Translations under genes and position numbers: made by a program
The notes under the pieces: generated by a model
Seen by the model: only the letters and a program-made list of their open reading frames with translations
What the model was told of the DNA's origin: nothing
The model's database searches: none
Shown: positions 10,943 through 25,115 of the stretch, piece by piece
How positions within the stretch are numbered: the stretch's first letter is position 1
How the letters are laid out: the number at the start of each line of letters is the position of its first letter
Assembly (NCBI RefSeq): GCF_048403405.1
Contig: NZ_CP183129.1
DNA length: 64,000 bases
Reading direction: 5' to 3' (one strand)
Source of the DNA: Escherichia coli
GTDB lineage: Bacteria; Pseudomonadota; Gammaproteobacteria; Enterobacterales; Enterobacteriaceae

Positions 10943-12109
10943 TCAAACTGATGGACGCAAACGAACGCGTAACCAGCTGTATCCAATTACCGCCGAAGAG
11001 ATAGAACCGACCAGGATACCGAGTTTCGCCCAGTTAATCAGTTCTGGATCTACGCTACCAAAGGCCAGGCTGGCAATAAAGATAGACATAGTAAAACCGA
11101 TACCGCACAGGATCCCCACCGCCATAATTTGCTGATAAGTCGTTCCCTCAGGCAGATGCGCCAGTTTCAAACGCAGCGCCAACCAGCAGAACAGACTAAT
11201 CCCCAGCGGTTTGCCAATCAGCAAGCCAGCGATGATCCCCAATGGTAGAATGGAGGTCAAGCCATCCAGCGTGACGCCTTGCAGTGAAACGCCAGCATTA
11301 GCAAATGCAAACAGCGGTAAAATCAGATACGCCACCCACGGGTGCAACACATGCTCCAGTCGCTTCGCTGGAGAACGCCCATGCTTCTCTTTCAAAGGAA
11401 TAAAGAAGCCGACAATTACCCCCGCCAGGGTTGCGTGAACCCCCGATTTCAACACCGCAGTCCACAACACCACGCCAACCAGAATATAGACGCCCGTGCG
11501 GCGTACACCACACAGATTCAATACCGCGAGTACCGCAATTGCTACAGCCGCGACGCCAAGAGAGGCCATCGATAAGTCATTAGTGTAGAACAATGCGATG
11601 ATAATGATGGCCCCAAGATCGTCGATAATAGCCAGAGCCATCAAAAAGATCTTCAGCGCTAACGGAACACGACTTCCCAATAGCGCCAGCACACCAAGTG
11701 CAAAAGCAATGTCAGTAGCCGCCGGGATCGCCCACCCTTCGCGGGTAATCGGATCGGCATGGTTAAAGGCCAGATAGAGTAATGCAGGCACAATCATCCC
11801 ACCAATAGCGGCGATAACTGGAAATGCAGCCTGGCGTAAGCTGGCTAGCGATCCTTGCATCAGTTCACGTTTAACTTCCAGACCGACTAACAGGAAAAAT
11901 ACCGCCATCAGCGCGTCATTTATCCATAACAGCATGTTTTTGTTGATTTCGAGTGAACCAACCCGGAGCTGAACCGGCGTCTCCAGAAAGTCGTGATACC
12001 ATCCACTGGTTGCGCCGCTGTTGGCCATAATCATCGCCAGGATAGCGGCAATGATAAGAATAATGCCTCCCGAGGCATCACTGCTAAAGAATCGATGCAG
12101 ATGTTTCAC
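10943..12109 (-). CDS. nhaA: Na+/H+ antiporter NhaA
   Basis: 388-aa polytopic membrane protein [31 protein letters not shown]... Confidence 0.95.
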
Positions 12110-12589
12110 TTTTTATTTCTCTTTCAGGTGAATAGATCGTTTTTACTATCTTACCCCGCACGAATCATCGTTAAAATCAGATTATAGTGTAGGAATAATT
12201 CGTTTTTTACGAACCATTGAAGGATTTGTGCCATCAGCGATGAGATGAGTTTTTGACGGCTGTAAGCGCTGACGTGTGACCCTAAGCCCTGATAATCATA
12301 GCTTAAGGTCAGGATTTCTGAGGGATTAATTAGGAAAAGTAATAATTAATTTGTTGTCAGTCGGCGATGTTTGTTAGGCCAATATTTCAAAAATAATCCA
12401 GTTTGTCGTCAATAATTGCGATGAAGAGATAAATTAAAGTTAAATAATTAAATCATTAAAAAATTACGCCATAAAAATGCGAGGCGTCTTCAGGATTAGA
12501 ATCGATAAAACAGAATGGGTTAAAGAGAGCGATATAATAGCGGCGGGTGCTTGAGGCTGTCTGTCTCAGGCATTAGCTGAACGGCAGAT

Positions 12590-12650
12590 AGAGAAAAGCC
12601 CCGAGTGATATTTTACCATCAACCCGAGGCCCCCTATATGCTGAACACAT
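12590..12650 (-). ncRNA. sokC: predicted Sok-type antisense RNA overlapping mokC start
   Basis: Position inferred from hok/sok architecture (antisense to mok translation initiation region); not verified by structure. Confidence 0.3.
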
Positions 12651-12847
12651 GTAGAGTGCCTCTTACTGACCGTAAGGTCAAGGAGAAGAGAGCAATGAAG
12701 CAGCATAAGGCGATGATTGTCGCCCTGATCGTCATCTGTATCACCGCCGTAGTGGCGGCGCTGGTAACGAGAAAAGACCTCTGTGAGGTTCACATCCGAA
12801 CTGGCCAGACGGAGGTTGCTGTTTTCACGGCTTACGAATCCGAGTAA
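12638..12847 (+). CDS. mokC: hok-family regulatory overlapping reading frame
   Basis: 69-aa frame MLNTCRVPLTDRKVKEKRAMKQHK... fully overlapping hokC. Confidence 0.6.
   Translation: MLNTCRVPLTDRKVKEKRAMKQHKAMIVALIVICITAVVAALVTRKDLCEVHIRTGQTEVAVFTAYESE
12695..12847 (+). CDS. hokC: Hok/Gef family small membrane toxin
   Basis: 50-aa MKQHKAMIVALIVICITAVVAALVTRKDLCEVHIRTGQTEVAVFTAYESE, textbook Hok/Gef sequence. Confidence 0.85.
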   Translation: MKQHKAMIVALIVICITAVVAALVTRKDLCEVHIRTGQTEVAVFTAYESE

Positions 12848-12920
12848 GAGCAACGGCGGGGAGTGATCCCCGCCACTTTACAGGTGCTCGCATATCTTCA
12901 ACGCACCCTATTTTTAACCA

Positions 12921-12943
12921 AGCCTGCCCACGGGCAGGCTTTT
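12921..12943 (-). terminator. hairpin just downstream of dnaJ stop (likely dnaKJ terminator; convergent with hokC)
   Basis: agcctgccc-acg-ggcaggct stem with flanking T-rich runs; a second hairpin ggcgggga-gtga-tccccgcc lies at ~12855-12874 directly after hokC. Confidence 0.45.
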
Positions 12944-12950
12944 GGGGAGG

Positions 12951-14081
12951 TTAGCGAGTCAGGTCGTCGAAAAACTTCTTCACACCATCAAAGAAGCTCT
13001 TTGAACGCGGGCTGTTGTGCTCGCCGGTTGGGCCACCGAAGCTTTCCTGCAGCTCTTGCAGCAGCTGTTTCTGCTTCTCGTTCAGACCTACCGGTGTTTC
13101 GACGACAACGCGGCACAGCAAATCACCCTGTGCGCCACCGCGGACAGACTTGACGCCTTTACCGCGCATACGGAACAGCTTACCGGTCTGGGTTTCGCCA
13201 GGCACTTTCAGTTTGACGCGACCATCAAGGGTCGGTACTTCGATTTCGCCACCCAGCGCCGCCATAGCGAAGTTGATCGGGACTTCGCAATACAGGTTGT
13301 TACCTTCACGCTCGAAAATCGGGTGCTGTTTAACCTGAACCTGAACGTACAGATCGCCTGCCGGTGCGCCATGCTCGCCCGCTTCACCTTCGCCCGCAAG
13401 ACGGATGCGGTCTCCAGTGTCCACCCCTGCCGGGATTTTAACGGACAGCGTTTTGCTGCGCTCAACACGACCATGACCATGACATTTGTTGCACGGATCT
13501 TTGATCAGCGTACCCCGGCCCTGACAGTGTGGACAGGTCTGCTGCACGGCAAAGAAACCCTGGCGCATCTGCACCTGACCAGAACCATGACAGGTCGGAC
13601 AGGTCTGCGGCTGTGTACCTGGTTTTGCACCGCTACCGTGGCAAACGTCACACTCTTCCAGAGTCGGAATGCGGATCTCTTTGGTCACGCCACGTACAGC
13701 TTCTTCGAGGGTGAGCTCCATGTTATAGCGTAAATCAGCACCGCGCGCCGCACGTTGACGACCACGTCCGCCGCCAAAAATATCGCCGAAAACGTCACCA
13801 AAAATATCGCTGAAGTCTGCGCCGCCGCCGAAACCGCCGCCGCCCATGCCACCTTGCTCAAACGCAGCATGACCATACTGATCGTATGCCGCACGTTTTT
13901 GCGAGTCGGTCAGAACTTCATAAGCTTCCTTGATCTCTTTAAATTTCGCCTCGGCCTCTTTATCACCCTGGTTACGGTCCGGGTGGTATTTCATGGCCAG
14001 GCGTTTGTAGGCCTTTTTGATTTCACGCTCTTCCGCTGTTTTGGAAACGCCTAAAATCTCGTAATAATCTTGCTTAGCCAT
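12951..14081 (-). CDS. dnaJ: Hsp40 co-chaperone DnaJ
   Basis: Track ORF 12951..14111; DnaJ N-terminus [12 protein letters not shown] starts 10 codons in; J-domain, G/F region, CxxCxGxG zinc fingers present. Confidence 0.95.
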
Positions 14082-14169
14082 CTTTTTTAAATTGCCCCTA
14101 GATGAATGCACGGGCGGAGAGGAAATTCCCCTTCGCCCGTGTCAGTATAATTACCCGTTTATAGGGCGA

Positions 14170-16086
14170 TTATTTTTTGTCTTTGACTTCTTCAAATTCA
14201 GCGTCGACAACATCGTCATCTTTCGCGTTGTTTGCAGAAGCATCAGCACCGGCAGTCTGCTGCTGGGCATGTTGCTGCTGGGCGATTTCCATCAGTTTCT
14301 GGGAAACCTGTGCCAGTTCCTGCATTTTCGCTTCGATAGCGGCTTTGTCTTCACCTTTCAGAGCAGTTTCCAGTGCAGTCAGTGCAGACTCGATAGCAGT
14401 TTTGTCGTCAGCCGGCAGTTTGTCGCCTGCTTCTTCAACCTGCTTACGGGTGCTGTGCAGCAGATGGTCACCCTGGTTGCGAGTCTGTACCAGCTCTTCA
14501 AACTTACGGTCAGCTTCGGCGTTAGCTTCTGCGTCGCGTACCATTTTCTGGATTTCATCTTCGTTCAGACCAGAAGAAGCCTTGATGGTGATCTTCTGCT
14601 CTTTACCGCTGTTTTTATCTTTCGCGGAAACGTGCAGGATACCGTCAGCATCGATATCGAAGGTAACTTCGATCTGCGGCATACCGCGCGGTGCCGGGTT
14701 GATACCATCCAGGTTGAACTGACCCAGAGATTTGTTATCAGCCGCACGTTTACGTTCACCCTGCAGCACATGGATGGTTACCGCAGACTGGTTGTCTTCA
14801 GCGGTAGAGAACACCTGGCTGTGCTTGGTCGGGATAGTGGTGTTTTTCGCGATCAGCGTCGTCATCACACCGCCCATGGTTTCGATACCCAGTGACAGCG
14901 GGGTAACGTCCAGCAGCAGTACGTCTTTTACGTCACCAGTCAGAACACCACCCTGAACAGCAGCACCGATTGCTACAGCTTCGTCCGGGTTAACGTCTTT
15001 ACGCGGCTCTTTACCAAAGAACTCAGCAACTTTCTTCTGAACCATTGGCATACGAGTCTGACCACCAACGAGGATAACGTCGTCGATATCAGATACGGAC
15101 AGGCCAGCGTCCTGCAGTGCAACTTTCAGCGGCTCAATGGAACGGTTTACCAGATCTTCAACCAGGCTTTCCAGTTTCGCACGAGTCACTTTGATGTTCA
15201 TGTGTTTCGGACCGGTCGCGTCTGCAGTGATGTACGGCAGGTTAACGTCGGTCTGCTGAGCGGAAGACAGCTCGATTTTCGCTTTTTCTGCCGCTTCTTT
15301 CAGGCGCTGCATTGCCAGCGGATCGTTGCGCAGGTCAATGCCCTGATCTTTCTTGAATTCTTCAACCAGGTAGTTGATCAGACGGCTGTCGAAGTCTTCA
15401 CCACCCAGGTGGGTATCACCGTTGGTTGCCAGAACTTCGAAGGTTTTTTCGCCGTCAACTTCGTCGATTTCGATAATAGAAATATCGAAAGTACCACCAC
15501 CCAGGTCATAAACCGCGATAGTACGGTTGCCAGTACCTTTGTCCAGACCGTAAGCCAGCGCAGCTGCGGTCGGTTCGTTGATGATACGTTTTACTTCCAG
15601 ACCAGCGATACGGCCTGCGTCTTTGGTTGCCTGACGCTGAGCATCGTTAAAGTATGCCGGTACGGTGATAACAGCTTCAGTTACCGGTTCACCCAGGTAA
15701 TCTTCAGCGGTTTTCTTCATTTTTTTCAGCACTTCAGCAGAAATCTGCGGCGGTGCCATTTTCTGGCCTTTAACTTCGACCCATGCGTCGCCGTTATCAG
15801 CAGCAATAATTTTGAACGGCATGATGGAAACATCACGCTGTACTTCTTCGTCCTGGAAGCGGCGGCCAATCAGGCGTTTAATCGCAAACAGGGTGTTTTG
15901 CGGGTTCGTCACTGCCTGACGTTTAGCCGGCTGACCAACCAGAGTTTCACCATCCTGGGTATAGGCAATGATAGAAGGCGTGGTGCGATCGCCTTCGGCG
16001 TTCTCCAGTACACGAGGAGTGGTGCCATCCATAATCGCTACACAAGAGTTGGTAGTACCCAGGTCGATACCAATTATTTTACCCAT
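14170..16086 (-). CDS. dnaK: Hsp70 chaperone DnaK
   Basis: 638 aa [21 protein letters not shown]... Confidence 0.97.
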
Positions 16087-20288: not shown

Positions 20289-21719
20289 ATGCCAGATTTT
20301 TTCTCCTTTATTAACAGCGTCCTTTGGGGATCGGTAATGATTTACCTGCTCTTCGGCGCAGGTTGTTGGTTCACTTTTCGCACCGGATTTGTGCAGTTTC
20401 GCTACATCCGCCAGTTTGGCAAAAGTCTTAAAAATAGCATTCATCCACAGCCAGGCGGTTTAACCTCATTTCAATCATTGTGTACCAGTCTTGCGGCGCG
20501 CGTGGGTAGCGGCAACCTGGCTGGCGTTGCGCTGGCTATTACCGCCGGTGGACCAGGTGCCGTCTTCTGGATGTGGGTTGCCGCGTTTATCGGCATGGCG
20601 ACCTCGTTTGCCGAATGTTCCCTTGCACAACTTTATAAAGAACGTGACGTTAATGGGCAGTTTCGTGGCGGACCGGCATGGTATATGGCGCGCGGGCTGG
20701 GGATGCGCTGGATGGGCGTTCTGTTCGCCCTCTTTTTGCTCATCGCCTACGGCATAATTTTCAGCGGAGTTCAGGCGAACGCCGTTGCCCGAGCCCTGAG
20801 TTTTTCTTTTGATTTTCCCCCGCTGGTGACAGGCATTATTCTTGCTGTCTTTGCTCTGCTGGCAATCACTCGCGGTCTTCATGGCGTCGCCCGGCTCATG
20901 CAAGGGTTTGTCCCGTTGATGGCGATAATCTGGGTACTGACCAGCCTGGTAATTTGCGTAATGAATATCGGGCAACTTCCCCACGTCATTTGGTCTATTT
21001 TTGAGAGTGCTTTTGGCTGGCAGGAAGCGGCAGGCGGCGCGGCGGGATATACCTTAAGCCAGGCGATTACTAACGGTTTTCAGCGCAGTATGTTTTCCAA
21101 TGAGGCGGGAATGGGGTCGACGCCAAACGCGGCAGCGGCGGCTGCGTCCTGGCCTCCGCATCCCGCAGCGCAAGGAATTGTCCAGATGATTGGCATTTTT
21201 ATCGACACCCTGGTCATCTGTACGGCAAGCGCCATGCTGATATTACTGGCGGGTAACGGCACAACCTACATGCCGCTGGAAGGTATTCAGCTTATCCAGA
21301 AGGCGATGCGGGTGTTAATGGGTTCCTGGGGTGCGGAGTTTGTTACCCTCGTGGTTATTCTGTTTGCCTTCAGCTCCATCGTTGCCAACTACATTTATGC
21401 CGAAAACAATCTCTTCTTCTTACGCCTGAACAACCCTAAAGCGATCTGGTGTCTGCGAATCTGCACCTTCGCAACGGTCATCGGCGGCACCTTGCTAAGT
21501 CTTCCGCTGATGTGGCAACTGGCAGATATCATTATGGCCTGCATGGCTATTACCAATTTGACCGCCATATTACTGCTCTCGCCTGTGGTTCATACCATTG
21601 CCAGTGATTATCTACGCCAGCGTAAACTCGGCGTGCGCCCGGTGTTTGATCCGTTGCGTTATCCGGATATCGGTCGCCAGCTTTCTCCGGACGCGTGGGA
21701 TGATGTTTCGCAGGAGTAA
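20289..21719 (+). CDS. yaaJ: alanine/sodium symporter family transporter
   Basis: 476-aa polytopic membrane protein in conserved position between talB and yaaA. Confidence 0.9.
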   Translation: MPDFFSFINSVLWGSVMIYLLFGAGCWFTFRTGFVQFRYIRQFGKSLKNSIHPQPGGLTSFQSLCTSLAARVGSGNLAGVALAITAGGPGAVFWMWVAAFIGMATSFAECSLAQLYKERDVNGQFRGGPAWYMARGLGMRWMGVLFALFLLIAYGIIFSGVQANAVARALSFSFDFPPLVTGIILAVFALLAITRGLHGVARLMQGFVPLMAIIWVLTSLVICVMNIGQLPHVIWSIFESAFGWQEAAGGAAGYTLSQAITNGFQRSMFSNEAGMGSTPNAAAAAASWPPHPAAQGIVQMIGIFIDTLVICTASAMLILLAGNGTTYMPLEGIQLIQKAMRVLMGSWGAEFVTLVVILFAFSSIVANYIYAENNLFFLRLNNPKAIWCLRICTFATVIGGTLLSLPLMWQLADIIMACMAITNLTAILLLSPVVHTIASDYLRQRKLGVRPVFDPLRYPDIGRQLSPDAWDDVSQE

Positions 21720-21788: not shown

Positions 21789-22565
21789 ATGCTGATTCTT
21801 ATTTCACCTGCGAAAACGCTCGATTACCAAAGCCCGTTGCCCACCACGCGCTATACGCTGCCGGAGCTGTTAGACAATTCCCAGCAGTTGATCCATGAAG
21901 CGCGGAAACTGACGCCTCCGCAGATTAGCACGCTGATGCGCATCAGCGACAAACTGGCGGGTATCAACGCCGCTCGCTTTCATGACTGGCAGCCAGATTT
22001 CACGCCGGAGAATGCCCGCCAGGCGATTCTGGCGTTTAAAGGTGATGTCTACACCGGCTTGCAGGCCGAAACCTTCAGCGAAGACGATTTCGATTTTGCC
22101 CAACAGCATTTGCGAATGCTTTCCGGCTTGTATGGCGTACTGCGCCCGCTCGATTTAATGCAGCCTTATCGTCTGGAAATGGGGATCCGTCTTGAGAATG
22201 CCCGAGGGAAAGATCTGTATCAATTCTGGGGAGATATCATCACCAACAAGCTGAACGAGGCGCTCGCAGCACAAGGCGATAATGTGGTGATTAATCTGGC
22301 GTCAGATGAGTATTTTAAATCGGTGAAGCCGAAGAAATTGAATGCCGAGATTATCAAGCCGGTGTTCCTCGATGAGAAGAACGGCAAATTTAAGATCATC
22401 AGCTTCTACGCTAAGAAAGCACGCGGTCTGATGAGTCGTTTCATTATTGAAAATCGGCTGACCAAACCAGAGCAACTGACTGGTTTTAATAGCGAAGGTT
22501 ACTTCTTTGATGAAGCTTCCTCCAGCAATGGCGAACTGGTGTTTAAACGCTACGAGCAGCGTTAA
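21789..22565 (+). CDS. yaaA: peroxide stress protein YaaA (UPF0246)
   Basis: 258 aa [17 protein letters not shown]... Confidence 0.9.
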
Positions 22566-22901: not shown

Positions 22902-23059
22902 AGGTTACTCCTTTTATCATTGCCCGTTATGGGTCGATATCCGGAGATTACGCGATGAGAACGGCAGTTGTTATTCTCCGCAATCCTAATCTCTAAGTTA
23001 CCGCATTTATTGAGAATTTCTCCTTTTTCCCTGTCGTTTTTCTCCATATTTTCTTCATA

Positions 23060-23770
23060 ATAAATATCCTCCGGCATAGCCGGAGGTTTTTCAAATGCGC
23101 CTATAAGGCTCTCTTACCAGCCGCGCCCTAACAGGCGCACACGATCTGACATTTGCATCCAACTTCGTTACTTACGGCCCGTAAACGGGCTGCCCGGATA
23201 GGGAATCGATAACTGCTCTCCCATTTTATCCTCTTCAAGCTGGTGCTTTATGTAATCCTGTATCTTCGCCGTGTTCTTACCCACCGTATCGACGTAGTAC
23301 CCTCTGCACCAGAACTCCCTGTTCCTGTATTTGAATTTCAAATCACCAAACTGCTCGTAAAGCATCAGACTGCTTTTCCCTTTCAGATATCCCATAAAGC
23401 CGGATACGCTCATTTTGGGCGGGATCTCCACAAGCATATGGATATGATCTGCACAGCATTCAGCTTCCAGAATCCGTACACTTTTCCACTCACACAGCTT
23501 TCTCAAAATACTGCCTATTGCTCTACGCTTCTCTCTGTAGAACACCTGTCTTCGGTATTTTGGCGCAAAAACTATGTGATATTTACAGTTCCATCGGGTG
23601 TGCGCTAAGCTCTTTTCGTTCCCCATTGGGACCCCCTTTTGATTTCTTGTTTGACACTTGCAGTTGCCAGACCGCAAGGTGTTTTAACAAATCAAAAGGG
23701 GTTTTAATAACTGGCTTAAAGCTGAAAGCTTTCCGGAACCCCCAGCCTAGCTGGGGGTTTTCTGTGCACA
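23060..23770 (-). mobile_element. IS200-like insertion sequence (IS200/IS605 family), ends approximate
   Basis: Single HUH/Y1 transposase gene preceded by long RBS-sequestering inverted repeat (23634-23702) and terminal palindrome cccccagc-cta-gctggggg; yaaX-thrC gap is ~710 bp longer than I recall for K-12. Confidence 0.65.
23168..23626 (-). CDS. tnpA: IS200-type transposase TnpA (Y1 HUH)
   Basis: 152-aa MGNEKSLAHTRWNCKYHIVFAPKYRR...HIHMLVEIPP... (HUH motif) within track ORF 23168..23677. Confidence 0.85.
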   Translation of the reverse strand: MGNEKSLAHTRWNCKYHIVFAPKYRRQVFYREKRRAIGSILRKLCEWKSVRILEAECCADHIHMLVEIPPKMSVSGFMGYLKGKSSLMLYEQFGDLKFKYRNREFWCRGYYVDTVGKNTAKIQDYIKHQLEEDKMGEQLSIPYPGSPFTGRK

Positions 23771-23771
23771 A

Positions 23772-23806
23772 CAAAAAAGCCGGGCTGCATAAAAGCAAAC
23801 CCGGCC
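23772..23806 (-). terminator. rho-independent terminator of the thr operon
   Basis: Minus strand: gccggg...cccggc stem followed by T6, ~25 bp after thrC stop. Confidence 0.7.
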
Positions 23807-23828
23807 TGATTGAGATAATGAATAGATG

Positions 23829-25115
23829 TTACTGATGATTCATCATCAATTTACGCAACGCAGCAAAATCGGCGGGCAGGTTATGCGAAAGCAAGGGTAA
23901 ATCAGCACGTTCTGCCAGCTCTTTTGGCAGATCCAACGTTTCACCGAGAATCGCTTCCACGCTCTCTTTAAATTTCGCCGGATGCGCGGTGCCGAGGAAC
24001 AAGCCATATTCGCCTGGATTCAACTGGTCACGCAGCGCACGATACGCTACGGCAGCGTGCGGCTCCGAGGTGTAGCCCAGTTCTTTTAACTCACGCATTG
24101 TCTGTTGCGTGGTTTCATCATCCACGGCTGCATAACCCAGCTCTTTCAGTTGCCAGATTTTGCGGCGGAACAACTCTTCCACACGCGGCCAGTTGTTCGG
24201 CTGACTCACGTCCATCGCGTTGGATAACGTCGCCTGAGTCGCTTTGGGTGACCACTGACCGTCATGCAGGAAACGTGGCACGGTATCGTTCACGTTGGTC
24301 GCAGCAATAAAACGTTTCACCGGCAGACCGAGTGACTTCGCCAGCAGACCCGCCGTCAAATCGCCGAAGTTACCGCTTGGTACCGAGACAACCAGCTGGT
24401 TGCGCGCCTCCTGCGGCAGCTGCGCAACAGCTTCAAAGTAGTAGCAAATCTGCGCCAGCAAACGGCTGATGTTAATCGAGTTAGCTGAGTTTAACCCCAG
24501 CGCCACTTTCAGTTCTTCATCATCAAACGCCTGCTTCACCAGCGCCTGACAGGCATCGAAATCGCCGTCGATGGCAACAGTTTCAATATTGCCGCCCAAT
24601 GTACAGAACAGTTTTTCTTGCAGTGGACTGATTTTGCCTCGTGGATAGAGGATAACCACTTTCACATTCGGCAAACCGTAGAAAGCATGAGCCACTGCCG
24701 CTCCGGTATCACCGGAGGTCGCGGTCAGAATGGTCACTGGCTTATCGCCCGCAATATGGGTCAGCATTTGTGCCATAAAGCGACCGCCGAAATCTTTAAA
24801 TGCCAGCGTTGGCCCGTGGAACAACTCCAGACAACCGACATCGCTTTCAACATTGGCGACCGGAGCCGGGAAGGCAAACGCCGCGCGTACGCGCTCTTCC
24901 AGGATTTCCTGCGGGATTTCATCACCAATAAACGCCGAGAGGATCTTCGCACTGCGGGTGACAAAATCCAGCTTCAGCATCTCATCAATTTCAGTCAGGC
25001 TGAATTCCGGCAGGTCGTGCGGGAAAAACAGCCCCTGATTTTTGCCCAACCCCTGGGTTACGGCTTGCGCAAAGCTGACCTGCTCATTGTGATCTTTCAG
25101 ATTGTAGAGTTTCAT
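23829..25115 (-). CDS. thrC: threonine synthase
   Basis: 428 aa MKLYNLKDHNEQVSFAQAVTQGL... Confidence 0.97.
   Translation of the reverse strand: MKLYNLKDHNEQVSFAQAVTQGLGKNQGLFFPHDLPEFSLTEIDEMLKLDFVTRSAKILSAFIGDEIPQEILEERVRAAFAFPAPVANVESDVGCLELFHGPTLAFKDFGGRFMAQMLTHIAGDKPVTILTATSGDTGAAVAHAFYGLPNVKVVILYPRGKISPLQEKLFCTLGGNIETVAIDGDFDACQALVKQAFDDEELKVALGLNSANSINISRLLAQICYYFEAVAQLPQEARNQLVVSVPSGNFGDLTAGLLAKSLGLPVKRFIAATNVNDTVPRFLHDGQWSPKATQATLSNAMDVSQPNNWPRVEELFRRKIWQLKELGYAAVDDETTQQTMRELKELGYTSEPHAAVAYRALRDQLNPGEYGLFLGTAHPAKFKESVEAILGETLDLPKELAERADLPLLSHNLPADFAALRKLMMNHQ

Follow-up and report, generated by a model that had tools for sequence, protein, structure and literature searches.

An intact IS200C element directly after the thr operon terminator of Escherichia coli

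Introduction

The spacer between thrC and yaaX in the E. coli DNA analysed here (a stretch of 64,000 nucleotides, hereafter the window) contains a small transposase gene and several hairpins. This raises the question of where the inserted DNA begins and ends, which hairpins belong to it and which to the thr operon, how the element came to lie beside the thr terminator, and whether it could affect yaaX. IS200, its hairpins and its antisense RNA are already well described, and IS200C at thr is an already annotated, ordinary element in a typical place, with nothing new in kind. The present analysis makes small additions: the exact ends of the element, two separate insertions at thr in different lineages, and three bases (GTT) that appear to have been carried along.

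Results

Gene order of the locus and identification of the element

The window shows the thr region of E. coli as its reverse complement. It aligned collinearly to NZ_CP128875.1 of strain TUM14771 (3 mismatches over 21.9 kb), and the genes around the element were arranged as follows.

20289-21719, plus strand: yaaJ
21789-22565, plus strand: yaaA
22605-22901, minus strand: yaaX
23168-23626, minus strand: tnpA, 152 codons and a stop; HUH/Y1 transposase (HIH at residues 61-63, Y125; WP_000526135.1)
23829-25115, minus strand: thrC

The element is placed in the thrC-yaaX spacer in the same orientation as both genes, and RefSeq labels the identical locus of TUM14771 as "IS200/IS605-like element IS200C family transposase" (WP_000526135.1). 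The 152-aa product matched Pfam Y1_Tnp (3.8e-38), NCBIfam transpos_IS200 (147.7 bits, cutoff 55) and the solved TnpA structures PDB 2a6m (IS608) and 2vhg, both at 4e-19, and 2xm3 (ISDra2) at 2e-16. Its HUH motif is the HIH of residues 61-63, and its single catalytic tyrosine is Y125, the residue that was changed to obtain a catalytically dead IS200 TnpA (PMC4513863). The tnpA reading frame is intact, and its product is identical to WP_000526135.1, which is present at many sites. Within the 711-bp unit defined below, tnpA was the one annotated gene, further reading frames being unannotated and overlapping it. With one tnpA at 23168-23626 and its Y1_Tnp match, the single-gene HUH transposase element that the original prediction had placed between yaaX and thrC was recovered as described.

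Elsewhere in the window, GC content falls to 0.45 across positions 1-16000, mainly at about 3516-9940. By collinearity with TUM14771, a fimbrial chaperone-usher operon and the espX1 effector gene lie in this low-GC stretch, which is placed between nhaR and rpsT and is a strain-variable island. In K-12, the nhaR-rpsT spot carries IS1.

Boundaries of the insertion and the native thr terminator

The minus strand of the window was aligned with two empty sites, from strain NE88 and from a K-12-like strain. These alignments placed the inserted DNA at 23059-23772 (714 bp, minus strand), with a boundary ambiguity of 0-2 nt that comes from T residues common to both sides. The empty thr site reads ...GCAGCCCGGCTTTTTT/ATGAAGAAAA, where the slash marks the junction (in short form, CCCGGCTTTTTT/ATGAAG), and the occupied site reads ...CCCGGCTTTTTT/GTTGTGCACAG...GGATATTTATT/ATGAAGAAAA (in short form, CCCGGCTTTTTT/GTTGTGCAC...TTTATT/ATGAAG). 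Target-site duplications were absent when empty and occupied sites were aligned at thr (two lineages) and at ompX, and an insertion of 712 nt at plaP, compared in the same way, was likewise without a repeat.

Ten other E. coli insertion sites contained a constant 711-bp unit that runs from GTGCACAGAA to CCGGAGGATATTTATT. The empty allele of ompX, GGATTTTTGTT/TTTAAGG, indicated that the insertion at that site is exactly this unit, and tandem right-end/left-end junctions in Y. pestis gave identical element ends. Since the 711-bp unit is constant at the other sites, the DNA inserted in the window resolves into IS200C at 23059-23769 and an additional GTT at 23770-23772. The features of the insertion and its flanks are thus as follows.

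23059-23769, minus strand: IS200C proper, 711 bp, GTGCACAGAA... to ...CCGGAGGATATTTATT, common to 10 distinct E. coli sites
23770-23772, minus strand: extra bases GTT, inserted with the IS, absent from empty thr sites and from the insertion in strain AR_0067
23773-23778, minus strand: T6 tract of the thr terminator, target sequence, with the IS left end joined directly 3' of the tract
23779-23805, minus strand: native thr terminator hairpin, GCCGGG...CCCGGC stem plus inner pairs, unchanged in the NE88 and K-12-like empty sites
22902-23058, minus strand: native upstream region of yaaX, 157 bp, intact and collinear with the empty sites except for scattered SNPs

The exact ends are now set as a 711-bp IS plus three apparently carried bases, next to a thr terminator that is native and intact and whose hairpin, with its flanks, folds at -21.8 kcal/mol. 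The range of 23060-23810 given for the element in the original prediction was about 40 nt too long on the thrC side, as 23773-23805 is native sequence found in the empty sites, and instead of lying a few bp from the terminator the IS directly abuts the T6 tract. The concern that the hairpins might be native intergenic sequence applied to the thr terminator alone; the three IS hairpins were missing from the empty sites.

Hairpins within the element

The structured regions of IS200C were mapped with IS200 offsets computed by setting nt 1 at position 23770.

23737-23759, minus strand: left-end subterminal hairpin, AACCCCCAGC-TAG-GCTGGGGGTT, a perfect 10-bp inverted repeat; IS200 nt 12-34 and first helix of the Rfam STnc490 match
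23633-23702, minus strand: 5'UTR stem-loop, 26 pairs in 70 nt; IS200 nt 69-138
23631-23638, minus strand: Shine-Dalgarno sequence AAGGGGGU, in the 3' arm of the stem-loop, with 6 of 8 nt paired in the lower stem
23096-23139, minus strand: long hairpin with imperfect pairing, GTGCGCCTGTTAGGGCGCGG...CCTTATAGGCGCA, downstream of the tnpA stop codon and ahead of the right-end hairpin
23068-23086, minus strand: right-end subterminal hairpin, CCTCCGGC-TAT-GCCGGAGG (also given as AACCTCCGGC-TAT-GCCGGAGGAT), with GAAAAA before and ATATTTATT after

Terminal inverted repeats were absent; the left and right ends instead carry similar subterminal hairpins, each with GAAAA before it. By analogy, the left-end hairpin is the bidirectional terminator known from IS200, which halts about 85% of incoming transcripts (PMC5435999), and it is also the presumed TnpA-binding hairpin. 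At the other end, the right-end hairpin is terminator-like on both strands, because GAAAAA precedes it and ATATTTATT follows it, and a simple terminator scan called it as such. The same scan made no call at the left-end hairpin or at the thr terminator, the latter being missed because the rule does not admit a loop of that length. A Vibrio copy showed compensatory changes in the right-end stem (CCACCGG and CCGGTGG).

The 5'UTR stem-loop folds at -31 kcal/mol into a 13-bp lower stem, a bulge, internal loops and an interrupted upper stem of 11 bp, and the whole 5' region folded better than 200 of 200 shuffled sequences (z = -4.5). In IS200, the stem-loop of nt 69-138 sequesters the Shine-Dalgarno sequence and was shown experimentally to repress tnpA translation, and the Shine-Dalgarno sequence quoted in that work is the identical AAGGGGGU (Ellis 2015, PMC4513863). 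Rfam STnc490 matched 23636-23759 on the minus strand end to end, with 146 bits and E = 2e-31 (gathering score 56). The assignment of this region to the known translational-repression structure of IS200 was therefore correct, as it maps exactly to nt 69-138 and is covered by the STnc490 match. Its earlier description as a perfect hairpin of about 70 bp burying both the ribosome-binding site and the start held for the Shine-Dalgarno sequence, which is covered; the hairpin itself is imperfect, and the tnpA AUG (23626-23624) lies outside, 7 nt 3' of the stem.

The STnc490 model matched the tnpA-sense strand, over the left-end hairpin and the 5'UTR stem-loop, whereas STnc490/art200 was defined as an antisense RNA by Ellis 2015 and 2017 (PMC4513863, PMC5435999); it seems that the Rfam family models the sense 5'UTR, or that the palindromic region scores on either strand. 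Matches to Rfam ceN100 and PsrR1 on the thr terminator and the right-end hairpin (E about 0.8) were dismissed as chance.

Recurrence at thr and spread in E. coli

IS200C was found at the thr terminator in 8 of 5426 complete E. coli genomes, six of them identical to the window. Strain AR_0067 differed in having a junction 3 nt shorter (TTTTTT/GTGCAC), four internal SNPs and the right flank GTGAAG instead of ATGAAG, and its joined flanks matched the empty sites of other strains at 100%. The shorter junction, together with an empty site of its own, indicates that exactly the 711-bp unit entered this position in another lineage. From these junctions, we read the window-type and AR_0067-type insertions as two independent events; strain LSN03-016011/A probably groups with AR_0067.

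Near-full-length IS200C was present in 2063 of the 5426 genomes, at up to 35 places per genome, and identical copies occurred at several sites, which we took as recent activity. O157:H7 plasmids, and other plasmids of about 75-95 kb, carried unannotated pieces of the IS200C right end (about 141 nt, with 92% identity to window 23059-23199); those on pO157-type plasmids are solo right-end remnants.

Origin of the extra GTT

The three additional bases at thr form the native flank of the element at the ompX and plaP terminators, where the junction reads TTTTTGTT/left end, and the ompX copy of strain 50579417 was 100% identical to the window copy over all 714 nt. Most simply, GTT was carried over from the flank of a donor. 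In a donor of the TTTTTGTT type (ompX or plaP), cleavage would have fallen 3 nt further upstream than usual and so have taken GTT along as left flank. Of the 80 genomes with the ompX copy, the 60 that were listed included no thr-site genome. At the plaP/sbcB site, 712 nt were inserted, with one extra T at a junction. The plaP and thr copies, of 712 and 714 nt, suggest that end cleavage is not always exact in T-rich flanks.

Target preference of the IS200 group

One genome per species was scanned with the 24-nt left-end hairpin, which gave at least 120 loci, and the 75 nt upstream of each left end were read among the matches listed, a sample in which Y. pestis, Vibrio ruber and a small number of metagenome-assembled genomes predominate. 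Nearly every listed copy had a GC-rich hairpin before it, with a T tract running up to the very first base of the IS, in Y. pestis, Vibrio ruber, Brenneria and Pluralibacter and in metagenome-assembled genomes labelled Mailhella, Bacillota and Oxalobacter. The ten E. coli sites lie downstream of a lom-like gene, pqqU, uhpT, tkt, wzzB, carB, plaP, ompX, exbD and thrC; at all ten, the upstream gene is co-oriented with tnpA, and a GC hairpin and a T tract stand directly before GTGCACAG. Similarity at the yghA/exbD site had raised the possibility that thr-terminator sequence was carried there with the IS; this was rejected, the alignment showing a similar but different exbD terminator.

A total of 127 unique left-end flanks (E. 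coli, Yersinia, Vibrio and others, among the matches listed) were then compared with random positions in the same loci and with T-rich 8-mer controls.

Hairpin with dG of -8 kcal/mol or lower: IS flanks 98%, random positions 32%, T-rich controls 23%
At least 5 T in the last 8 nt: IS flanks 94%, random positions 4.6%, T-rich controls not applicable
Hairpin and T tract both: IS flanks 92%, random positions 1.1%, T-rich controls not applicable

The controls include coding DNA and not intergenic DNA alone, so purifying selection contributes a share to this enrichment. The preference for hairpin-flanked targets was stronger than the original prediction had claimed. Over the 127 flanks, the profile from -7 to -1 before the IS was TTTTNTT, T accounting for 96% of bases at -5, 98% at -2 and 90% at -1, and the right end itself finishes in TTTATT. 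The order of hairpin, T tract and left end was invariable. The distance from the foot of the hairpin to the insertion was about 5-9 nt by eye and 0-9 nt when based on folds, the latter range being blurred by pairing between A and T tracts; with a spacing this variable, it is uncertain whether the target sites mimic the structure of the right end strictly.

In Y. pestis NCTC5923, tandem IS1541 copies were found in which the right end ...GGATATTTATT is joined, directly or with one additional T, to the next left end GTGCCCAGAA. IS1541 evidently inserts after its own right end, which fits a right end that resembles the target. Odaert et al., in 1998, are said to have proposed terminator-like stem-loops as hot spots of IS1541. 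A literature search on terminator targeting by IS200 and IS1541 returned only a preprint of 2025-26, which reports that terminator-like sequences are enriched upstream of IS200/IS605 elements.

Several metagenome-assembled genomes also contained the exact 24-nt hairpin, for the most part at the ends of contigs; their labels were Bacillota, Peptococcaceae, Mailhella/Desulfovibrio, Oxalobacter, Saccharibacteria and Elusimicrobiaceae. In these genomes the hairpin was invariant and the 10 nt before it varied by lineage, and its presence there could be due to wide horizontal spread or to a binning or assembly artefact.

Discussion

Proposed mechanism of insertion

The boundaries, the junctions and the survey lead us to conclude with high confidence that an intact 711-bp IS200C, probably carrying GTT, was inserted 3' of the thr T6 tract without target duplication, and we propose the following account of how it moves and selects targets. 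By analogy with IS608 and ISDra2, the element would move as a single-stranded circle and would enter the lagging-strand template on the 3' side of a T-rich target. GC skew was negative on the plus strand over all 64 kb of the window, and the IS top strand is the minus strand, so that at this single locus the top strand lies on the lagging-strand template, consistent with the bias of the family. Such "peel and paste" transposition of a single strand by TnpA would be in keeping with the identical copies at many sites and with the two insertions at thr.

In IS608 and ISDra2, a guide just 5' of the foot of each hairpin pairs with the cleavage or target sequence (PMC6006769). In IS200C, the target may be read by pairing with the GAAAA just 5' of the left-end hairpin, and the same GAAAA 5' of the right-end hairpin may serve the right-end cleavage site TTTATT; the arrangement of GAAAA before both hairpins and T-rich cleavage sites fits guide pairing. 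An intrinsic terminator in single-stranded form, a hairpin followed by a T tract, would moreover resemble the right end of the element itself, and we propose that this likeness explains why copies favour terminators and also why they occur as right-end/left-end tandems. More broadly, IS200-group transposases may choose targets by structure, with terminators mimicking the right end and GAAAA acting as guide, so that the terminators of genes replicated co-directionally, such as the thr terminator, would be recurrent hot spots across several bacterial phyla. Imprecise cleavage of the left end in T-rich flanks would then take along a few bases, GTT in this case, which could tag the donor site. We hold this general model with evenly divided confidence.

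Alternative explanations

That the hairpins are native intergenic or REP-like sequences and the element a decayed relic has a negligible chance of being correct, given that 23059-23772 is absent from the empty sites in more than 5400 genomes and that an intact reading frame encodes a protein found identically at many sites. The association with terminators could instead reflect survivorship: if a short T-rich target sufficed, insertions in genes and promoters would be purged and the remaining copies would lie after terminators whose hairpin is never recognised. IS608 and ISDra2 indeed require just 4-5 nt of target (PMC6006769), and the variable hairpin spacing and the coding DNA among the control positions point in the same direction. 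We nevertheless consider this explanation unlikely, as T-rich controls had a stable upstream hairpin far less often than IS flanks (among the matches listed), the orientation of hairpin, T tract and left end was always the same, the very same thr position was taken by two independent insertions, and copies go in immediately behind the right end of a neighbouring copy, a sequence that again consists of a hairpin with a T-rich tail.

The independence of the two thr insertions would be lost if all eight genomes descended from one event and AR_0067 had later diverged by gene conversion and flank recombination. IS copies in one genome can convert each other and recombination is frequent in E. coli; even so, this history is quite improbable, since the flank haplotypes differ (TTTTTT/ATGAAG and TTTTTT/GTGAAG), each with matching empty sites, and the left junctions are set apart by an indel of 3 nt that falls precisely on the IS boundary. 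As to GTT, it may have arisen locally, through slippage or repair when the element integrated at thr, and not have come from a donor. The listed matches yielded no donor copy for the thr-site genomes, and the IS also begins with GT, so that a short duplication is conceivable. We regard this origin as somewhat unlikely, because GTT stands directly before the left end as native sequence at ompX and plaP, the ompX copy matches the window copy throughout its length, and NTT variants are common before the left end.

Expected consequences for the locus

Insertion at this position would leave the thr terminator unchanged, T6 tract included. Two consecutive terminators would protect the tnpA gene against read-through from thr, the stem-loop would repress tnpA translation, and yaaX would retain its own upstream region. 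As all 157 bp upstream of yaaX are kept and both IS ends resemble terminators, the right end doing so in the direction of tnpA, a strong effect on yaaX is not expected; judged from the DNA, any effect on yaaX looks unlikely. The simple scan that missed the thr terminator reported no sigma-70-like promoter ahead of yaaX and none directed outwards from the IS, and it is no guide to yaaX expression. The IS200 group lies almost exclusively just after intrinsic terminators (127 sites, among the matches listed), and this placement helps to explain why IS200 is harmless and transcriptionally silent. Should recognition of the hairpin prove real, this would be a case of target choice by structure.

Comparison with known systems

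On its sequence features, the element is a member of the IS200 group of the IS200/IS605 family. IS200 of Salmonella enterica (Lam & Roth 1983; Beuzon 1999; Ellis 2015/2017) likewise has a single tnpA and the same left-end layout, with the terminator hairpin (nt 12-34) and the stem-loop (nt 69-138) at the same offsets, the same Shine-Dalgarno sequence AAGGGGGU and the same catalytic tyrosine Y125. Rfam STnc490, which is built on the IS200 family, matches IS200C end to end at 146 bits. The two elements differ in length, IS200C having 711 bp here and Salmonella IS200 707 bp according to the published figure.

The alignment with IS1541 that the original prediction had suggested gave 87.9% nucleotide identity over 710 bp, with an identical right end. 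IS1541 of Y. pestis and Y. pseudotuberculosis shares with IS200C both the right end GAAAAACCTCCGGCTATGCCGGAGGATATTTATT and the left-end hairpin, and at about 55 Y. pestis sites among the matches listed its left end is likewise flanked by a hairpin and a T tract. The first 10 nt of the left end are one base apart (GTGCCCAGAA in IS1541, GTGCACAGAA in IS200C), and the copy number of IS1541 in Yersinia is much higher.

IS608 of Helicobacter pylori and ISDra2 of Deinococcus radiodurans encode homologous Y1 transposases. They have in common with IS200C subterminal hairpins instead of inverted repeats, the lack of a target duplication, a left end joined 3' of a short specific target, and a top strand on the lagging-strand template. 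Unlike both, IS200C has tnpA as its sole annotated gene, with no tnpB annotated, and its target is TTTTNTT after a hairpin, whereas IS608 and ISDra2 use TTAC or TTGAT; in IS200C, the pairing between guide and target is the one presumed here from theirs.
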